From a virus (Duplodnaviria; Caudoviricetes), in IMG/VR virus record IMGVR_UViG_3300028025_000089: a stretch of 64,000 nucleotides of DNA, one strand, 5' to 3'. Under the pieces are notes generated by a model, which did no database searches, had not been told where the DNA came from, and was given only the letters and a program-made list of their open reading frames with translations. The translations under genes were made by a program, and so were the position numbers. Shown here piece after piece: positions 5-14,181 of this stretch. How positions within the stretch are numbered: the first letter of the stretch is position 1; every line of letters starts with the position of its first letter.

Positions 5-49
5 GTGATGGTGGACTCACCCCCACAACAAGAGAAAAAAGTTCTTTGA
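5..49 (+). promoter_or_regulatory. boxB-like hairpin plus boxA-like antitermination element ahead of the tRNA array
   Basis: Hairpin GGTG-gact-CACC (10-21) followed by AGTTCTTTGA (40-49). The same arrangement precedes the large ncRNA at 6748-6778. Confidence 0.45.
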
Positions 50-357: not shown

Positions 358-432
358 GGTGTGGTAGCTCAGTAGGTAGAGCAAGGAGCCGGAAAACTCC
401 TGTGCCGATGGTTCGATTCCATTCCCATACCA
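358..432 (+). tRNA. tRNA-Phe-like gene with an 8-nt anticodon loop (CCGGAAAA)
   Basis: Acceptor GGTGTGG/CCATACC; D arm GCTC/GAGC; anticodon stem AGGAG/CTCCT around the 8-nt loop 389-396; T loop TTCGATT. Confidence 0.75.
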
Positions 433-438
433 CAAACA

Positions 439-518
439 TTGTGACGCAGGTGCAACGTCGGTCTCATGAGCCGAATTGGGTCGCCCCCCGTCGGAGGTTC
501 GAGTCCTTCAGTCACAAC
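439..518 (+). tRNA. aberrant tRNA(CAT) with truncated D arm and long variable arm
   Basis: Acceptor TTGTGAC/GTCACAA; only 12 nt precede the anticodon arm TCGGT-CTCATGA-GCCGA (458-474); 18-nt variable region containing GGG-tcgc-CCC; T arm 493-509. Confidence 0.6.
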
Positions 519-523
519 AACAT

Positions 524-4511: not shown

Positions 4512-5126
4512 ATGGATAATTTCTCAACAGTTTTGGTGGCCTTTATAAGTGGTGTTTTAGGTCCCATCAGTATCATGATAATTAAATATTATTTAGATCA
4601 AAGAAAGAAAAATAAACCTGATATGGTGATGGATACATTGAGGGTTAGTGAATTGATAAATTCAAAAATCGAACACATTAAAGAAGAATTTGATGCCGAT
4701 AGAGTTTGGGTTTCTCAATTTCATAATGGAGGTAATTTCTACCCTACAGGAAAATCAATGGCAAAGTTTTCGATCATGTATGAAACCGTAGGTCAATACG
4801 GAACATCGGTCCAATCTAATTTTAAAAACATTCCTGTTAATTTATTTTCTAAATCTATTAATGAACTTTTAAATAACGAATCAATTGAAATATCGGATTT
4901 CACAGATGAAAAAATACCAACTTTTGGGTTGAAATATATTGCCGAAGAAACAGGATGTAAGTCTTCATACTTATTCGCAATTAAAACAATTGAAGAAAAA
5001 TTCATTGGTGTTTTATCTGTAGATTACGTTAAAGAACCAAGAGAGTTAGATATCGAGGAAATCACACATTTACAAGTTCATGCATCCTCTATTGGTGGTG
5101 TTTTAATGAGTTATTTGAATAAGTAA
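4512..5126 (+). CDS. N-terminal TM plus GAF-like domain protein (possible lysis regulator)
   Basis: TM helix near aa 5-27, then a DRVWV..FHNG...KS..LFAI...FIGVL.VDY GAF-like pattern. The ATG at 4512 is preferred over the TTG at 4506. Confidence 0.55.
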   Translation: MDNFSTVLVAFISGVLGPISIMIIKYYLDQRKKNKPDMVMDTLRVSELINSKIEHIKEEFDADRVWVSQFHNGGNFYPTGKSMAKFSIMYETVGQYGTSVQSNFKNIPVNLFSKSINELLNNESIEISDFTDEKIPTFGLKYIAEETGCKSSYLFAIKTIEEKFIGVLSVDYVKEPRELDIEEITHLQVHASSIGGVLMSYLNK

Positions 5127-5149
5127 ATAATATTTCATATCTTTACGGT

Positions 5150-5632
5150 ATGAATATTTTCTTTTTAGATTTTGATACGAACAAATGTGCTGAGTATCAT
5201 TGTGATAAGCACGTAGTAAAAATGATCCTTGAAACGGCACAACTTCTGTGTGGAGTTCACCATATGGCCCCCCAAGTTACCCCCCAAGTTACCCCCCAAG
5301 TTCCCTATAAGTTATCACATAAAAATCATCCTTGTGCCATATGGGTTCGTGAGTCATTATCTAATTATCTTTATTTATGTGATCTTGGTTTGGAGTTGTG
5401 TAAAGAATATACGTATCGTTATGGAAAACGTCATAAATCTCAAGATGTTATTGAGTGGTGTATCACAAATTTACCGAATATCTGTGACAAAGACTTCACC
5501 ACACCTCCTAAGGCGATGCCTGACGAATATAAAGTCAATGATGTTATAGAATCTTATAGAAATTATTATCGTGGAGCAAAGAAAGATTTTGCTAAATGGA
5601 AAAATAGAGAGATCCCCGAATGGTTTTTATAA
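5150..5632 (+). CDS. pyrimidine-dimer DNA glycosylase (DenV/endonuclease V-like family)
   Basis: MNIFFLD...CAEYHCDKHVVKMILETAQLL...HKNHPCAIWVRES...YTYRYGKRH motifs. Confidence 0.8.
   Translation: MNIFFLDFDTNKCAEYHCDKHVVKMILETAQLLCGVHHMAPQVTPQVTPQVPYKLSHKNHPCAIWVRESLSNYLYLCDLGLELCKEYTYRYGKRHKSQDVIEWCITNLPNICDKDFTTPPKAMPDEYKVNDVIESYRNYYRGAKKDFAKWKNREIPEWFL
5268..5303 (+). repeat. in-frame 12-bp tandem repeat x3 (PQVT)
   Basis: CCCCAAGTTACC unit repeated inside the glycosylase gene. Confidence 0.9.
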
Positions 5633-5651
5633 AACAGAAGTATTTATTAAT

Positions 5652-6410
5652 ATGAAAGTTTCAAAATCTGCTTGTAGTTCATCAAACCCTTGTTCTGGAT
5701 ATGGTAGTGATGTTAGTGGTTGTTTAGGTAGTTCAAATTTAAAATCAATAGGTATTGGTAATAATGTGTTGGCTAAAGAAGCTGCCGATGCATTCATTAA
5801 AATGACTGATGACATGCCAAGTAATTTAAAAAGTAAGATCTCAATGGGAGGTGCATACAGACCTCTTAATATCCAATGTAATATTTTTGATTGGGGTAAA
5901 TATGAATCAACAGGAAAAAGAGTTAAAAAAGGAACTTCATCGACACCTGCGGCATATCCAGGAACATCTAATCATGGATGGGGTAGAGCAATCGACATAT
6001 CACCGTCAGATGTTCAAAATTGGATTAGAGAAAATGGAACAAAATACGGTTGGTGTTGGGGTGAAGCAAAATCAGAACCTTGGCATTTTACATTTTGTGG
6101 ACCAGGATCAAATAGAGATAAAAATTGTGATAGTTTTTGTAAAGGAAAAATGACCGTAGATACTTCTTCCGACAAAAAAGAAACATCTACAGAGAAAGAA
6201 GAAAAATCTACAGATAAAAAAGATACGTCTACTGATGGTAAAGATAAAAAAAAGAAATTCGATCCATTTTTTTCTTCTTTGGATGCAATTGTTGCTCTTG
6301 GTAAAGGAGATGTAAAAGGGTTGGAAGATTATGTTAGTAGTAGTGCTGATATGATTGGTTTATCCGAAGACGTAGATAGAATAAAAGATATTATGAAAAA
6401 AATACTTTAA
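5652..6410 (+). CDS. M15B (VanY-like) D,D-carboxypeptidase / cell-wall peptidase
   Basis: AYR...Q, AAYPGTSNHGWGRAIDI, YGW, EPWHF motifs. The true start is probably the ATG at 5652, after TATTTATT at 5641-5648. Confidence 0.85.
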   Translation: MKVSKSACSSSNPCSGYGSDVSGCLGSSNLKSIGIGNNVLAKEAADAFIKMTDDMPSNLKSKISMGGAYRPLNIQCNIFDWGKYESTGKRVKKGTSSTPAAYPGTSNHGWGRAIDISPSDVQNWIRENGTKYGWCWGEAKSEPWHFTFCGPGSNRDKNCDSFCKGKMTVDTSSDKKETSTEKEEKSTDKKDTSTDGKDKKKKFDPFFSSLDAIVALGKGDVKGLEDYVSSSADMIGLSEDVDRIKDIMKKIL

Positions 6411-6467
6411 ATATTTGACTAATATTTATATTTAACTTATCATTTCACTTGTAATTAATTAAATAAT

Positions 6468-6644
6468 ATGAGTGAAGAATTAACCCAAGAAAATGAACCG
6501 AAAGTAATTGAGATGTATTCTTACATTGCAAACGGAAAACAACTATGGACATCTAATCTATCATTTGCACAAATCAGAGCTGATTTTTATGGAACAAATG
6601 ATGTTTATGTTGAAAAAGTTGAAGTGAAAAACTTGACAAATTAA
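6468..6644 (+). CDS. 58-aa hypothetical protein (not in ORF track)
   Basis: ATG 6468 to TAA 6644, open frame; TATTTATA at 6423-6430. Confidence 0.6.
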   Translation: MSEELTQENEPKVIEMYSYIANGKQLWTSNLSFAQIRADFYGTNDVYVEKVEVKNLTN

Positions 6645-6663
6645 AATTAAGTTTTTATATTTG
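6633..6663 (+). promoter_or_regulatory. Bacteroidota sigma-A type promoter P1 of the large ncRNA
   Basis: TTG (6633-6635), N20, TAtaTTTG (6656-6663). Confidence 0.7.
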
Positions 6664-6706
6664 TAAAACAATTGAGGGAAACCTTAAAAAAAAAGTAAAA
6701 GAAAAA

Positions 6707-6738
6707 TTTGACTAATTAAAAAATTCTTCTTAACTTTG
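6707..6738 (+). promoter_or_regulatory. Bacteroidota sigma-A type promoter P2 of the large ncRNA
   Basis: TTTG (6707-6710), N20, TAacTTTG (6731-6738). Both promoters are followed by TAAAACAA. Confidence 0.75.
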
Positions 6739-6747
6739 TAAAACAAA

Positions 6748-6778
6748 TCAGGAAACGTCCTGAATCGTTCTTTGAAAA
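6748..6778 (+). promoter_or_regulatory. boxB-like hairpin plus boxA (GTTCTTTGAAAA)
   Basis: TCAGGA-aacg-TCCTGA (6748-6763), then GTTCTTTGAAAA (6767-6778), like an rrn leader. Confidence 0.55.
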
Positions 6779-6779
6779 A

Positions 6780-7670
6780 ATAGATTATCCAATCAGGAAA
6801 AGTTTTGTCAGATTAATTGACGTGTAATTGAAACGAATGTTTCATCTTGGAATGATAAAGATATTGGGCAGTATATGGTCCATTAAAATAAACCATGAAA
6901 GTGGGATAAAGTGAATTATTTGTGTTAGATAGTTTGCGGCTTCTTCGGGAGCTCGAGTATACAAGCGGGATACCGTTTAACCTTTAGTATCGAGGGCAAC
7001 GCTGTAGAGAAAGTGGTTAGATGATTTGGCGATGTGGGTCGTCAAATTGAGGTGGGAACACCAATAGGAATAACTCGTAGGAATTTTGCAAAACAAAGTG
7101 TTCCAACACTTTCATTGCGAGTTCCAATATTAGAGGATACTTAAAACCGAAAGGTATGATAACAAACGGGTGGTGCCGACATTATCCTTGATGAACTCCT
7201 ACCAAGGGGTTAATCTCGAAGTAGTCTTAAAGTATGGAAATGGGGACATTTCAGAGAGTAGTTGAGTATTTCGTTGTTCAAAAGATAACGAAGCCCGTGA
7301 CGGACCACTACTTTCACAATCCACGACACAAAACTTATGGAAGTTGTTATTTTCCAAAAAATAATTATTACATTAAGGAAAAGTGTCCGTCAGGTTTGAA
7401 TGAAAGGTGACTACATAGTAATGAGCAGTTCATTGCACACAAAGATCCCAAGTCGATGTGTAATTTTTCGAAAAACCTTTAATCCCGCAAGGACGAACTG
7501 GGGAGGCATCCTCGGAAAGAGTTAAAGTAGAATGAGAGTAGTTCAGACCTCAAGGAGTGGTATACCTAAAAGACCGTCACTGAGAAATACTTCTCAAAAG
7601 GAAGTGGATAGGAGTAGAAACAATAATGACTCTAAAGGTTCTCACAAATAGGTGTAATCTCAACCTTTTA
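6780..7670 (+). ncRNA. giant structured ncRNA, probably GOLLD family (boundaries approximate)
   Basis: About 890 nt with no ORF in the track, GC-richer than the flanks. C(UUCG)G hairpin 6939-6952; GNRA hairpins 7147-7156 and 7237-7252; long-range helices 7219-7225/7307-7313 and TGACGGAC (~7298-7305)/GTCCGTCA (~7385-7392); terminal helix AAAGGTT (~7635)/AACCTTT (7662-7668); tandem promoters upstream and a terminator downstream. Confidence 0.7.
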
Positions 7671-7707
7671 TTTCTTTTATAGAATGGAGCTAAAACCGGT
7701 AAAAATA

Positions 7708-8268
7708 TTAGGGACGATGTGAATCGATCCCTTTTTTTGTTTTTACTGATTGGTAAATAAGATCAATAAAGTTTAACATTTCATCATGTGTCATTGAATT
7801 TTTTGCATGGTTACATGCGGTGCTTATAAATTGTATGTTTCCTTTCACATACCCTAAATTACTATTGATCCTATCTAAAGAGGCGGTATTGATGTTATTA
7901 CCATTTTCATTTGGTTGAACTAATTTAACACCACTATAAACACAAATGCCACTTTGTATTTCCCATTGATCTAAAAGATCTTGTAAATCAATGTTATACT
8001 CATGATGTCTTTTTTTTAGTCTTCTGAAATGCTCTCTAAGTCCTGTAAATTGATCTCTACGGTTGTTTCTTTGTGGTTCTAAGTATTTAATATTTTCATT
8101 AACATATTGTTTTAAGTGGTTGTGATTATCAATACCACAACATTTTCTTGAGCAATAGTTTTTTCTACCAATTTTTTCGTTTCTAACTATTTCAGACTTA
8201 TCTTTCAAAAACTCAATACCACAAGATGGGTTAGAACATATTGTTAATTCTTTTTTTCTTTGTCTCAT
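7708..8268 (-). CDS. free-standing His-Me finger (HNH / endonuclease VII-like) homing endonuclease
   Basis: N-terminal Cys motif C..PSC...YCSRKC; C-terminal C.YSG...SLDRINSNLGYVKGNIQFIS.ACN.AKN. Confidence 0.8.
   Translation of the reverse strand: MRQRKKELTICSNPSCGIEFLKDKSEIVRNEKIGRKNYCSRKCCGIDNHNHLKQYVNENIKYLEPQRNNRRDQFTGLREHFRRLKKRHHEYNIDLQDLLDQWEIQSGICVYSGVKLVQPNENGNNINTASLDRINSNLGYVKGNIQFISTACNHAKNSMTHDEMLNFIDLIYQSVKTKKGIDSHRP
7710..7738 (+). terminator. intrinsic terminator downstream of the large ncRNA
   Basis: AGGGACGAT-gtga-ATCGATCCCT followed by a T run. Confidence 0.6.
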
Positions 8269-8291
8269 ATTCTTTTATTTATAAATAGTCC

Positions 8292-8326
8292 GTATCCACA
8301 AAAAAAACCAAGTATCCACAAAAAAA
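8292..8326. repeat. 15-bp direct repeat GTATCCACAAAAAAA x2
   Basis: Copies at 8292-8306 and 8312-8326, a 20-nt period. Confidence 0.85.
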
Positions 8327-8331
8327 TAAAC

Positions 8332-8364
8332 AAAAAAAATCCCACCATAATTAAATAGTGGGAT
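8332..8364 (-). terminator. tmRNA terminator
   Basis: ATCCCAC...GTGGGAT inverted repeat (8339-8364); the A run at 8332-8339 gives a U tract on the minus strand. Confidence 0.65.
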
Positions 8365-8368
8365 CAAT

Positions 8369-8786
8369 TGGTGGACCTAGAGGGCTCCGACTCCCTCGTC
8401 CGGCTCGTCTTGTCTAAAAGACAACTACATGTTTAGATCAAGGTTTTTCATACCTTCCGAAATATTTGGTTCCTATTTTTACATTGTTACCAAAAACTGT
8501 GTCGAGTTCACTTTGTTACGGTAGCCCTCTGAACGAGACCGTTGTTTCCTTTTAGAGTGAAAACCAACTCATCTACGACTTCTGTTGCTAGGTTATCTGT
8601 CTGACCGACCCCCCGTTTCCGTATCTAATTAAGCTACAGTAACTTCAGAACCTCTTACTAATCCAAGAGTTTCCATTTTGTTTAGCACATTGCCAGTTGT
8701 GTTTTGAATCAGTTTTTAACGAGATTAATTCAGTCCCGACATGCTTCTTTTATTCAACCAACGCCCGTCAAATCCAATATAGGCCC
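8369..8786 (-). ncRNA. ssrA: tmRNA (SsrA)
   Basis: 5' GGGCCTA-TATTGGATTTGAC; 3' T arm GAGGG-AGTCGGAG-CCCTC, then TAGGTCC-A-CCA. Acceptor stem has the G3:U70 alanine determinant. Internal tag frame at 8694-8629. Confidence 0.93.
8629..8694 (-). other. tmRNA tag reading frame (A)GNVLNKMETLGLVRGSEVTVA*
   Basis: Resume codon inferred as GGC after AACT; open for 21 codons to TAA. Confidence 0.75.
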
Positions 8787-8823
8787 ATATATCTTAAATG
8801 ACTATTTTCAAAGAACTATAATA

Positions 8824-8854
8824 CAAATATAATACAAAGATTTCACTTTGACAA
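8824..8854 (-). promoter_or_regulatory. Bacteroidota sigma-A type promoter for ssrA
   Basis: On the minus strand: TTG (8854-8852), N20, TAtaTTTG (8831-8824). Confidence 0.65.
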
Positions 8855-8869
8855 TATATTTATAAATAT

Positions 8870-10006
8870 ATGAAAAAAAGACTTCTTATAGAAAATGATG
8901 TTTCAGAAATGACGGATTTTCAAAAAATCCTTCTTTTAAATAAAAGAAAGTTGTCTTCTGATGATGTTGAATTTGAAAGTGATAATTACGAAGACTTGAA
9001 ACTAAATCATGTTCAGATTAAACCTGATGGTCTATTATTTGATTTTGATGATTTAGAACAGTTTTTAAAGTTTTTTCATTATCCTACATTTGAAGAAGGA
9101 ACTGACGGTGAGTGGGATGCGACTAATTATGATCGTATGTATTATGGTCAATATGATTTTTATAGTGAGTGTCAAGATCGAGCATACGACGATTGGAGTG
9201 AAGGATATACTTTAGGATATCTTTGTAGTGAAGCAAAAATCAGATTAAGAGAATTACTTAAAATAATTGCACCTAACCTTGTTGATAATATTAAAGAAGA
9301 CGGTAGTAGAATTGATGATGAAAGTCAAATAACTTCAGTATTGGACAAATACTTTCAACATATTGGAGATGAAATGGATGATATTATATGTTCTGCTAAA
9401 TCGAATGGAACTGAAGCGGGAGTTAAAGAAGCGATTGAAAAAGAATATTGTAATACACTTAGTGAATATGGTGTTGAAAAATGGGGTAAGTGGTGTTTTG
9501 GATTATACTTTATAAGTTGGGGTAATCTGGTTCAGTTATTTGTTGAAGATGGTGAATTTGATGTAAACGCTCTTGATGTATTAATTCAAAAAATCGATAA
9601 AAAATTTAGACACGGTCTTCCTGAATATTACGAAATGGAATACTATGTTATGGACAATGAAGTATTTGAATCTGAGTCTTGTGAAAAATTGGTTAATTTA
9701 ATTGATGAGTATATAGAAAGAGCCCAAGAAGAATTTTCTTCTGAATATATTAAAATTATTAATAAACTCTCATCTTTGGATTTATTATATAGAAGAGAAA
9801 TTCCAGGTCAAAAAAATTTATTTATAAAAGTGGATTCAGTTGATCCTGAAACATTAAAGGTAAAGTATCTTATTGGGTCAGGAGGTTATTTTGGTGATCG
9901 TAAATATGGTTTGGCAACTGCTGATGAGGTAATTGCAATGGCAACTCAGCCAGGTTTATTCAACCCAACTGAGTTTAGAATCGATCCAGGTCAATTAAGA
10001 CGATAA
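8870..10006 (+). CDS. acidic hypothetical protein (late-motif gene)
   Basis: 378-aa ORF; TATTTATA at 8857-8864. Confidence 0.75.
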   Translation: MKKRLLIENDVSEMTDFQKILLLNKRKLSSDDVEFESDNYEDLKLNHVQIKPDGLLFDFDDLEQFLKFFHYPTFEEGTDGEWDATNYDRMYYGQYDFYSECQDRAYDDWSEGYTLGYLCSEAKIRLRELLKIIAPNLVDNIKEDGSRIDDESQITSVLDKYFQHIGDEMDDIICSAKSNGTEAGVKEAIEKEYCNTLSEYGVEKWGKWCFGLYFISWGNLVQLFVEDGEFDVNALDVLIQKIDKKFRHGLPEYYEMEYYVMDNEVFESESCEKLVNLIDEYIERAQEEFSSEYIKIINKLSSLDLLYRREIPGQKNLFIKVDSVDPETLKVKYLIGSGGYFGDRKYGLATADEVIAMATQPGLFNPTEFRIDPGQLRR

Positions 10007-12141: not shown

Positions 12142-14181
12142 TTATTCTTTCTTTTTTCTTGTTCTTTTAACTTTTTCTTCTTTATTAGAAATTATAACAT
12201 CATCATTTTCGACTTTCAAAATATATTCTTTGTTTTCTTCAATTTCCATCATTAAGATTTTTTCGGAAATTAAATCTTCAATTTTATTTTGAATTGCTCT
12301 TTTGATAGGTCTTGCACCAAAAGTTTCGTCAAAACCAACTTTAGATAGATAATCAACCAAATCTTGTTCATAAGAAAAATAGTATTTTTTCTCTGAAACT
12401 CTTTTTAATAATTTGTCAATCTCTAACTTGGTAATAACGTCAATGTGTGGTTTTTCTAAAGAGTTAAAAATTACAACATCATCAATTCTATTTAAAAACT
12501 CAGGTGAGAAAAACTTTTTCATTTCTTTCTTCAATACATCTTGTTTTTCTTCTTCTTTAACAACATCACTTTTTTGAGGTTGGAATCCCATACCAGTTCC
12601 AAAGTCTTGTAATTTTTTAACTCCAATGTTGGAAGTCATAATAATCAAACAATTTTTGAAGTTAATTTTACGACCTAATGAATCTGTAATGTGGCCATCA
12701 TCTAACAACTGAAGAAGTGTTGAGAAAATGTCTTTGTGAGCTTTCTCGATCTCATCAAACAATACAACAGAATAAGGTTTGTTTTTAACTTGTTCAGTTA
12801 ATTGACCACCTTCATCATGACCAACATATCCTGGAGGTGATCCAATCAAACGAGAAATGGTATGTTTCTCTTGATATTCACTCATATCTACACGAATCAT
12901 ATTGTCTTCACTACCAAAGATTTCTTTCGCCAATTGTTTTGCCAAATACGTTTTACCAACACCCGTAGATCCCAAGAAAATAAATGAACCGATTGGTTTA
13001 TTTGGATCTTTGATTCCAATTCTATTTCTTCTAATTGCTTTTGAAATTTTATTCACCGCTTCTTCTTGACCAATAACCTTTGAATTTAAACTTTCATTTA
13101 AATTAATTAATGAATTTCTTTCGTCCAAATTAATATTGGAAATTGGAATTTTGGTCATGTTGGAAACCACCTCATAAATTAAATCTTCAGGAATACTTCT
13201 TTTACTATTCAATAAACTTTCTTCGAATTTCTTTTTTTCTAAATCCAACTTTGATAAAACATTACGTTCTCTATCTCTTAACTCGGCAGCCAACTCATAT
13301 TTTTGTTGTTTAATAACATTCATTTTTTCTTGTTTGATGGCGTTTGCTTCGTCCTTTAATTTTTCGATTTCTTCAGGTAATTTGATGTCAATTTGCATTC
13401 TTGATCCAACCTCATCCAAAATATCAAATGCTTTATCAGGAAACTCACGATCTGTAATATATCGATCAGCCAACTCAACAAATGTCCAAAGAGTTTTATC
13501 ATCATAAGTCACTTTGTGGTGATCTTCATATTTTGATTTACTCATCTTTAAAATTTCAAATGTTTCTTCTTTTGAAGATGGATCAACAATAACCTTTTGA
13601 AATCTTCGATCTAACGCACCGTCTTTTTCAAAGTGTTTTCTATATTCATCCAAAGTTGTTGCTCCAACACATTGAATATCTCCTCTTGATAAAGCTGGTT
13701 TTAAAATGTTTGACGCATCTAAAGAACCTGAACTATTTCCTGCACCAACCATAGTGTGAATTTCATCAATAAATAAAATGATGTTTGGGGTTGCTTGTAA
13801 CTCTTCGATAATAACTTTCATTCGTTCTTCGAATTGACCTCTATATTTTGTTCCTGCGACTAATGAATTTAAATCTAAAGATACAATTCTTTTATCCATT
13901 AAATTTTTTGGACATTCACCGTTGTGAATCATCATTGCAAGACCCTCCACAATTGCTGTCTTTCCTGCACCTGGTTCACCAATAATAATTGGGTTATTTT
14001 TCTTTCTTCGAGATAAAATCTGAGCGATTCTAAAAATTTCTTTTTGTCTTCCAATTACAGGATCTAATTTCCCGTCTTGTGCTAACTTATTTAAGTCTTT
14101 ACTAAAATTATCTAATACAGGAGTCCCGCTATCAGATTTCTTTTTTGATTTGTCATTTCCTTCGTCCATAAATTCTAACAT
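12142..14181 (-). CDS. clpC: ClpC-type AAA+ unfoldase lacking the N-terminal Clp domain
   Basis: LDPVIGR; Walker A GEPGAGKT and GSTGVGKT; Walker B FIDEIH and FDEIEK; UVR-like M domain (AIKQEKM..IKQQKYELAAELRD); MGF ClpP-docking loop. Confidence 0.92.
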   Translation of the reverse strand: MLEFMDEGNDKSKKKSDSGTPVLDNFSKDLNKLAQDGKLDPVIGRQKEIFRIAQILSRRKKNNPIIIGEPGAGKTAIVEGLAMMIHNGECPKNLMDKRIVSLDLNSLVAGTKYRGQFEERMKVIIEELQATPNIILFIDEIHTMVGAGNSSGSLDASNILKPALSRGDIQCVGATTLDEYRKHFEKDGALDRRFQKVIVDPSSKEETFEILKMSKSKYEDHHKVTYDDKTLWTFVELADRYITDREFPDKAFDILDEVGSRMQIDIKLPEEIEKLKDEANAIKQEKMNVIKQQKYELAAELRDRERNVLSKLDLEKKKFEESLLNSKRSIPEDLIYEVVSNMTKIPISNINLDERNSLINLNESLNSKVIGQEEAVNKISKAIRRNRIGIKDPNKPIGSFIFLGSTGVGKTYLAKQLAKEIFGSEDNMIRVDMSEYQEKHTISRLIGSPPGYVGHDEGGQLTEQVKNKPYSVVLFDEIEKAHKDIFSTLLQLLDDGHITDSLGRKINFKNCLIIMTSNIGVKKLQDFGTGMGFQPQKSDVVKEEEKQDVLKKEMKKFFSPEFLNRIDDVVIFNSLEKPHIDVITKLEIDKLLKRVSEKKYYFSYEQDLVDYLSKVGFDETFGARPIKRAIQNKIEDLISEKILMMEIEENKEYILKVENDDVIISNKEEKVKRTRKKKE

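Follow-up and report, generated by a model that had tools for sequence, protein, structure and literature searches.

The window considered here, that is, the whole stretch of DNA that was analysed, comprises 64,000 nucleotides (nt) of the IMG/VR virus record IMGVR_UViG_3300028025_000089 and belongs to a tailed phage, with genes for the terminase, the portal and the major head protein. Our subject is a unit on its plus strand, at 6633-7738, which contains the gene for a GOLLD RNA, preceded by a leader that resembles those of ribosomal RNA (rRNA) operons. A first-pass annotation, made from the letters of the DNA, had described this region as a GC-richer stretch free of genes and dense in hairpins with UUCG and GNRA loops, and these traits were confirmed. 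The GC content is 0.37-0.41 over 6850-7750 versus 0.24-0.33 in the flanks. Between a small upstream open reading frame (ORF) that ends at 6644 and an HNH gene that begins at 7708 on the opposite strand, the longest ORF in genetic code table 11 (searched between 6645 and 7707) has 58 amino acids (aa). A C(UUCG)G hairpin is present at about 6939-6950, besides several GNRA/GAAA loops. Folded on the plus strand, the 803-nt RNA reaches a minimum free energy of -216.7 kcal/mol, which is below that of 20/20 dinucleotide shuffles (z = -3.4), whereas the minus strand gives z = -0.2 against its shuffles, so that the folding is strand-specific. The features of the unit, which include comparisons with env-38, a GOLLD RNA of solved structure, are the following:

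6633-6663 (+): promoter P1, TTGACA-17-TATATTTG, with 11/12 hexamer matches in the promoter scan
6672-6687 (+): hairpin after P1, UUGAGG-GAAA-CCUUAA (-5.8 kcal/mol, z = -2.65)
6708-6738 (+): promoter P2, TTGACT-17-TAACTTTG; the block TAACTTTGTAAAAC is the best conserved upstream part
6748-6763 (+): boxB-like hairpin UCAGGA-AACG-UCCUGA, past the P2 start site and ahead of boxA
6766-6778 (+): boxA-like element CGUUCUUUGAAAA, with the core GTTCTTTGA at 6767-6775, recognized by its conservation and by its copies heading stable-RNA genes
6779-6863 (+): spacer of about 85 nt from boxA to the first GOLLD nucleotide (identity 0.2-0.3 over 6787-6846)
6864-7253 (+): GOLLD 5' domain, with 100 consensus pairs and apparent homology to the env-38 construct from its first nucleotides
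7254-7666 (+): GOLLD 3' domain, the part covered by RF02032 (313.1 bits, model positions 1-416 of 416)
7483-7493 (+): candidate L21a symmetric kissing loop (bridge B8), hairpin UCC-CGCAA-GGA, at an inferred position
7667-7709 (+): 3' trailer of 43 nt, poorly conserved (identity 0.3-0.4)
7710-7738 (+): intrinsic terminator predicted by folding, a 9-bp stem with one bulge and a GUGA loop (7710-7732), then U7

To our knowledge, GOLLD is among the largest bacterial or phage RNAs without a known function. We scanned the whole window against Rfam 15 and, permissively, the region 6300-9000 against all 4227 Rfam families. The GOLLD model RF02032 was matched at 7254-7666 (+) with 313.1 bits (gathering score 150, E = 1e-89), over the full model and without truncation. 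In the alignment nearly all stems are formed, with few non-canonical pairs, and this includes the 10-bp long-range helix of the Rfam consensus, which encloses the multi-stem core. An A-rich variable linker lies within the 3' domain at about 7327-7375, with a dip in conservation at 7327-7366. The same match was found in a 99%-identical relative (G001) and in relatives at 75-90% identity. The full-length match to RF02032 identifies 6864-7666 (+) as a GOLLD gene, whose RNA of 803 nt is structured and non-coding. The first-pass annotation had called it a GOLLD-type RNA and had proposed this very Rfam comparison as the check; its fallback, a new class of giant RNA, is inapplicable because the stretch is GOLLD. 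The family is known and the locus is an additional member of it; assigning the RNA to GOLLD is a matter of routine annotation. The first description of GOLLD dates from 2009 (Weinberg et al. 2009), and a structure followed in 2025 (Kretsch et al. 2025, PMC12286853); the RNA is phage-borne, often found near tRNAs, and induced during lysis (PMC12286853; PMC12990946).

As Rfam models the conserved 3' half of GOLLD only, the 5' half was studied through homologues. Pattern scans of IMG/VR with one 5' motif and one 3' motif gave >200 loci, far more than a blastn phage search, which returned three records only. The 112 full-length extracts were reduced to 63 non-redundant sequences at 95% identity, and to 60 after removing 3 chance matches. 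For the 5' domain (6850-7262), RNAalifold gave 100 consensus pairs over the 60 homologues, 75 of them with double-sided changes; 96% of the cells are paired, versus 35-43% after sliding the 3' partners by 1-3 columns. The covariation among homologues that the first-pass annotation had suggested looking for is strong in this half, with compensatory changes in 75 of the 100 pairs. Conservation spans from about 6860 to 7666 and drops sharply past 7666, and the total length of the RNA, 803 nt here, is 793-832 nt in the homologues.

The printed sequence of the env-38 construct (PMC12286853, Supplementary Table 4) starts with AUGGCCGCUAUGGUCGUCAAAUAAAUACGAAAGUAGGAUAAAGUGG and then shares successive blocks with our RNA from 6864 on, UUGGGCAGUAUAUGGUCCAUUAAAAUAAACCAUGAAAGUGGGAUAAAGUGA onward. 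On account of these common blocks, the RNA appears to be of the same 5'-domain subtype as env-38 and homologous to it along its length. Env-38 was solved as a D7 homo-14-mer nanocage, with the 5' domain as its cap, the 3' domain as its ring and a disordered linker in the interior (Kretsch et al. 2025, PMC12286853). In the 3' domain described here, the loop CGCAA at 7486-7490 falls about where nucleotides 656-657 of env-38 do. Its dinucleotide (GC at 7487-7488) is GC, CG or AU, always self-complementary, in 60/60 homologues. Switching between GC and CG has been reported for the symmetric intermolecular kissing loop L21a, bridge B8 (PMC12286853), and the hairpin at 7483-7493, whose dinucleotide pattern seems to match that signature, is a candidate L21a.

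Two other accounts of the stretch itself deserve consideration. It could be another large RNA, such as ROOL, a group I or group II intron or a new class, that merely resembles GOLLD, and the fact that the Rfam model leaves the 5' half uncovered gives some room for it. However, the permissive scan of 6300-9000 against the 4227 families returned nothing credible on the stretch besides GOLLD, and the 5' half appears homologous to the 5' domain of env-38, so we regard this alternative as extremely improbable. The same very low probability is assigned to the idea that the stretch codes for protein, either under a non-standard genetic code or as several small proteins. Small ORFs of 31-58 aa do exist on both strands, but the longest open run in table 11 is 59/332 codons across the region, and no frame stays open from end to end, whether in table 11 or with any one or two of the stops reassigned. 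A coding frame in another genetic code, which the first-pass annotation had named as contrary to its own proposal, was rejected for this reason. Furthermore, in the alignment of homologues the substitutions in helices are compensatory and the indels do not come in threes, and the match to the covariance model is full-length.

Regarding the leader, promoters of the Bacteroidota type have a -7 element TAnnTTTG and, about 19 nt before it, a TTG. P1 (TTGACA-17-TATATT(TG)) is readable both as a sigma-70-like -35/-10 promoter and as a Bacteroidota -33 TTG / -7 TAnnTTTG. After each promoter there is UAAAACAA and then a small hairpin (6672-6687 and 6748-6763). The first of these hairpins is a copy of the P2-proximal one and has no boxA behind it; the second is followed by CGTTCTTTGAAAAA at 6766-6778, which places GTTCTTTGA at 6767-6775 on the sense strand, 28 nt past the -7 element of P2. 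The two tandem host-type promoters, now assigned to the Bacteroidota type (P1 at 6633-6663, P2 at 6708-6738), the boxB/boxA leader and the terminator (hairpin at 7710-7732, then U7 to 7738) had all been put forward in the first-pass annotation, and all of them stand. At the 3' side, similarity to the relative G001 is lost right after the U-run of the terminator, which fits a unit boundary at that point. The closing helix that had been proposed between leader and trailer did not stand. Over 34 loci the leader-trailer duplex energy has a mean of -15.9 kcal/mol, versus -19.2 kcal/mol for shuffled sequences, and a leader-trailer processing helix was rejected, since the real duplexes are no better than the shuffled ones.

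The leader is a common feature of the related loci. The upstream block 6707-6786 is conserved at 0.56-0.79 identity and the sequence on both sides of it is not; the P2 region 6727-6746 has 0.79 identity in 63 sequences. The motif GTTCTT[TA][GA]A is present upstream in 59/60 non-redundant loci, and the exact 9-mer in 50/60. A strict TTG-N17-21-TAnnTTTG ending <=75 nt before boxA was found in 45/60 loci, typically at 26-28 nt, and in 16/60 at least two promoters lie within 200 nt of boxA. The hairpin before boxA is mostly kept in the homologues with a changed sequence (e.g. UCGGAAACGUCCGA, UCGGAAAUGACCGA, GGGUGAAUAACCC), and a few are without it. When loci were found by the 3' motif alone, the boxA-like motif was present in 91 of 100 upstream intervals of 590 nt versus 0 of 88 downstream controls of equal size. 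The 330 kb of sequence surrounding the GOLLD loci contain 73 exact copies, versus about 4 expected; 50 of them precede GOLLD and 12 precede a tRNA on the same strand. This GOLLD clade has kept the leader of promoter, hairpin and GTTCTTTGA. Full-text literature searches gave no paper linking GOLLD with boxA, antitermination or a defined promoter, and none on an rRNA-style leader ahead of stable RNAs of phages.

The window contains, on both strands together, three exact copies of GTTCTTTGA only, and they head the GOLLD gene, a transfer-messenger RNA (tmRNA) gene and a tRNA array. In all cases the 9-mer is in sense orientation. The features that go with the two other copies are the following:

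8369-8786 (-): phage tmRNA gene (Rfam 78.5 bits; not called by ARAGORN)
8854-8826 (-): promoter of the tmRNA gene, TTGTCA-17-TATATTTG, of the Bacteroidota type (promoter scan)
8816-8808 (-): exact GTTCTTTGA of the tmRNA gene, about 20 nt before the tmRNA 5' end (9-mer search)
8365-8338 (-): terminator of the tmRNA gene (side observation)
41-49 (+): third exact GTTCTTTGA, ahead of the tRNA array at 358-1716 (exact 9-mer search)

As judged from this arrangement, the tmRNA gene appears to share the regulatory logic of the GOLLD unit. ARAGORN found a tmRNA near 5/60 loci, a count that is an underestimate because this program misses the tmRNA of the window, which Rfam calls; therefore it was not used.

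To compare the leader with those of host rRNA operons, we took the 5' ends of 16S genes with their flanks from sampled Bacteroidota genomes, which gave 35 upstream regions. GTTCTTTGA is present exactly in 18/35 of these leaders and with <=1 mismatch in 32/35, at 70-250 nt before 16S, for a chance expectation per 400 nt of about 0.0015 for the exact 9-mer and about 0.04 with one mismatch. TAnnTTTG occurs within 90 nt upstream of the 9-mer in 10 of the 32 boxA-bearing leaders, with a hairpin between the two in 8 of those 10. This survey replaced a scan of a genome collection with TTTGTAAAA-N12-40-GTTCTTTGAAA, in which nearly all of the 120 matches were chance occurrences inside genes and one only lay before a 16S gene, in the Chitinophagaceae contig L232. 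The GOLLD leader thus matches the boxA region of Bacteroidota rRNA operon leaders, and the rRNA-like transcription unit of the first-pass annotation holds in comparative terms, with the leader in 59/60 GOLLD loci and the 9-mer in 32/35 of the 16S leaders. The host is probably a freshwater Bacteroidota bacterium, which is supported by the TAnnTTTG promoters, by the absence of a Shine-Dalgarno motif (0/52 large ORFs of the window) and by the A-rich ORF leaders.

Sequence nearly identical to that of the RNA also occurs in four freshwater metatranscriptome libraries, belonging to four studies, whose contigs lie on 6812-7717, some of them with 0 mismatches (e.g. 6885-7038 and 7149-7245). For the proposal of the first-pass annotation that host polymerase would transcribe the RNA at a high level, these contigs are the only support. 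None of these contigs lies on 5000-6660, 7718-8321 or 8775-9500, and missing cover was not counted as evidence. Each of the four runs has contigs starting at 6885-6887, where the most conserved block begins, and we take this for an assembly break rather than a 5' end.

In the rrn operons of E. coli, boxB, boxA and boxC follow just after P2, and boxA is necessary and sufficient for the rrn antitermination complex (PMC10250234). This complex contains NusA/B/E/G, SuhB and S4, resists Rho, elongates faster and has been proposed as a chaperone of nascent RNA folding (PMC10250234). Taken as a whole, the explanation that we consider best, with a probability of roughly 0.85, is a GOLLD gene with an rRNA-style leader, putative Nus antitermination and a predicted cage. 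Host RNA polymerase would start at P1/P2, and the nascent GUUCUUUGA would be bound by host NusB-S10, giving rise to an antitermination complex of the rrn type. Such a complex would shield the long untranslated transcript against Rho, make elongation faster and perhaps help co-transcriptional folding, and the same antitermination would serve the phage tmRNA and the tRNA array. By analogy with rrn, the phage may borrow host antitermination for its long untranslated RNAs. The RNA, in turn, would self-assemble into a closed cage of identical subunits, similar to the D7 14-mer that env-38 forms. One could guess that the cage acts in the take-over of translation by the phage, given the apparent co-regulation and the linkage with tRNAs and tmRNA.

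Several points weigh against this explanation. The homologues are related, so the locus counts given above overstate the number of independent events. The likeness to env-38 was judged by eye on the printed sequence, without an alignment score. The RNA-library sequences are assembled contigs, and DNA as well as relatives may be among them. A strict TAnnTTTG lies within 90 nt of boxA in only 10/32 boxA-bearing rRNA leaders among the 35 sampled, and GTTCTTTGA is also the rRNA boxA of Firmicutes, so the motif alone does not fix the host. With respect to the cage, the 3' domains of GOLLD from another species form 8-, 10- and 12-mers (PMC12990946), so that this RNA may differ from env-38 in stoichiometry. 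At the GOLLD unit, moreover, neither a boxC nor a leader-trailer helix was found.

This last result also counts in favour of a rival explanation. The RNA would be GOLLD, yet GTTCTTTGA would be a promoter-proximal or processing signal, for instance an RNase site or a site for a phage or host regulator, without Nus recruitment, and the likeness to rRNA leaders would reflect common processing. A role of that sort, as a processing site or a phage regulator site, would also fit other details: no hairpin stands ahead of the tmRNA copy of GTTCTTTGA, and four homologues have boxA 16-19 nt past the -7 element without a hairpin. In addition, the literature searched gave no demonstration of boxA function in Bacteroidota. 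Nevertheless, the 9-mer resembles the classical boxA cores, which are GCUCUUUAACAA in E. coli and GUUCUUUGAAAA in Firmicutes. It also occupies the place of boxA in rrn, just past the last promoter, and is in sense orientation in all cases. On balance we find the signal without Nus recruitment unlikely, and we prefer the reading of the leader as a boxA-type antitermination leader.

The whole freshwater clade of the env-38 subtype carries an rRNA-type leader (promoter, hairpin, boxA) common to the tmRNA and tRNA genes of the same phages. Such a leader would place GOLLD in the expression class of translation RNAs and would explain how an untranslated transcript of 800 nt could escape Rho. A broader proposal, which we regard as tentative and rather doubtful, is that phages of Bacteroidota possess a single regulon of stable RNAs, made up of GOLLD, tmRNA and the tRNA arrays, whose copied rrn leader puts it under the rRNA antitermination machinery of the host. 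Besides blocking Rho, the complex tethered at boxA would chaperone the folding and assembly of the cage, and the cage would, together with the tRNAs and the tmRNA, reprogram host translation.

Other observations concern the neighbourhood of GOLLD. Among the related loci, 22/60 have tRNAs on the same strand within 3 kb. The immediate neighbour of GOLLD is most often, by a wide margin, a tRNA for Met, which lies on the same strand in every case (e.g. L007, L014, L024, L029, L052, L054, L080, L120 and L124), and env-38 has likewise been described downstream of a Met-tRNA. In two huge phages of 634-642 kb, L002 (LR745206) and L003 (LR756502), whose genomes are unannotated in the collection, a GOLLD of the same 5'-domain subtype is flanked by tRNAs; in L003 a tRNA lies 10 nt past the GOLLD 3' end, and no boxA-like motif was seen upstream. 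Acinetobacter phage Ab15 (L004, PP763259.1: 26332-26697) has a GOLLD match of 219 bits inside a dense tRNA array, which is annotated in the record as small "hypothetical protein" ORFs.

In the window, the convergent GOLLD and tmRNA genes are separated by an HNH/endonuclease VII-like ORF of 186 aa at 7708-8268 (-) (PHROG endonuclease, E = 4e-21). This ORF is absent from G001, in which a different tmRNA allele (108 bits) directly abuts the GOLLD terminator. The arrangement looks like a homing-endonuclease insertion or a mosaic junction, because the similarity to G001 breaks exactly at the terminator. In the tRNA region, ARAGORN called a tRNA at 358-433 (+) with a four-base anticodon (ggaa) in an 8-nt loop, to which Rfam gives only 36 bits as a tRNA; either a frameshift-suppressor tRNA or a decayed copy is conceivable. 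T-arm-like sequences (GGTTCGATCC, GGTTCGAATCC and GGTTCGAGTCC) are present between the called tRNAs, at 150-350 and 436-520 (+), uncalled by ARAGORN or Rfam, and these may be odd or degenerate tRNA-like elements. Finally, a ClpC-like ATP-dependent protease of 679 aa is encoded at 12142-14181 (-) (PHROG 4871, E = 3e-239). Its position a few kb from the tmRNA gene suggests that the phage brings along components of its own for ribosome rescue and for proteolysis.

The unit can be compared with three known systems. It resembles env-38 in the full-length match of the 3' domain, the apparent 5' subtype, a length of about 800 nt (803 here and 833 in env-38), the A-rich variable linker, the phage setting with tRNA genes nearby and the self-complementary dinucleotide of the candidate L21a. 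It differs in being about 30 nt shorter, because one hairpin of the 5' domain is short here, and in coming from a freshwater sample, whereas env-38 is marine. Furthermore, no tRNA directly adjoins GOLLD in the window, the nearest being 5 kb upstream, and GOLLD is next to a tmRNA gene. With bacterial rrn leaders it has in common the tandem promoters, the hairpin, a boxA-type sequence just past the last promoter, a long untranslated structured RNA and the same 9-mer as in the Bacteroidota 16S leaders. However, the product is not an rRNA, the unit is phage-borne, and neither a boxC nor a leader-trailer processing helix was detected. The nut sites of phage lambda offer the other parallel, a phage transcript with a host boxA and a neighbouring hairpin; lambda, in contrast, uses its own N protein on boxB for mRNA operons, whereas the cargo here is a stable RNA.

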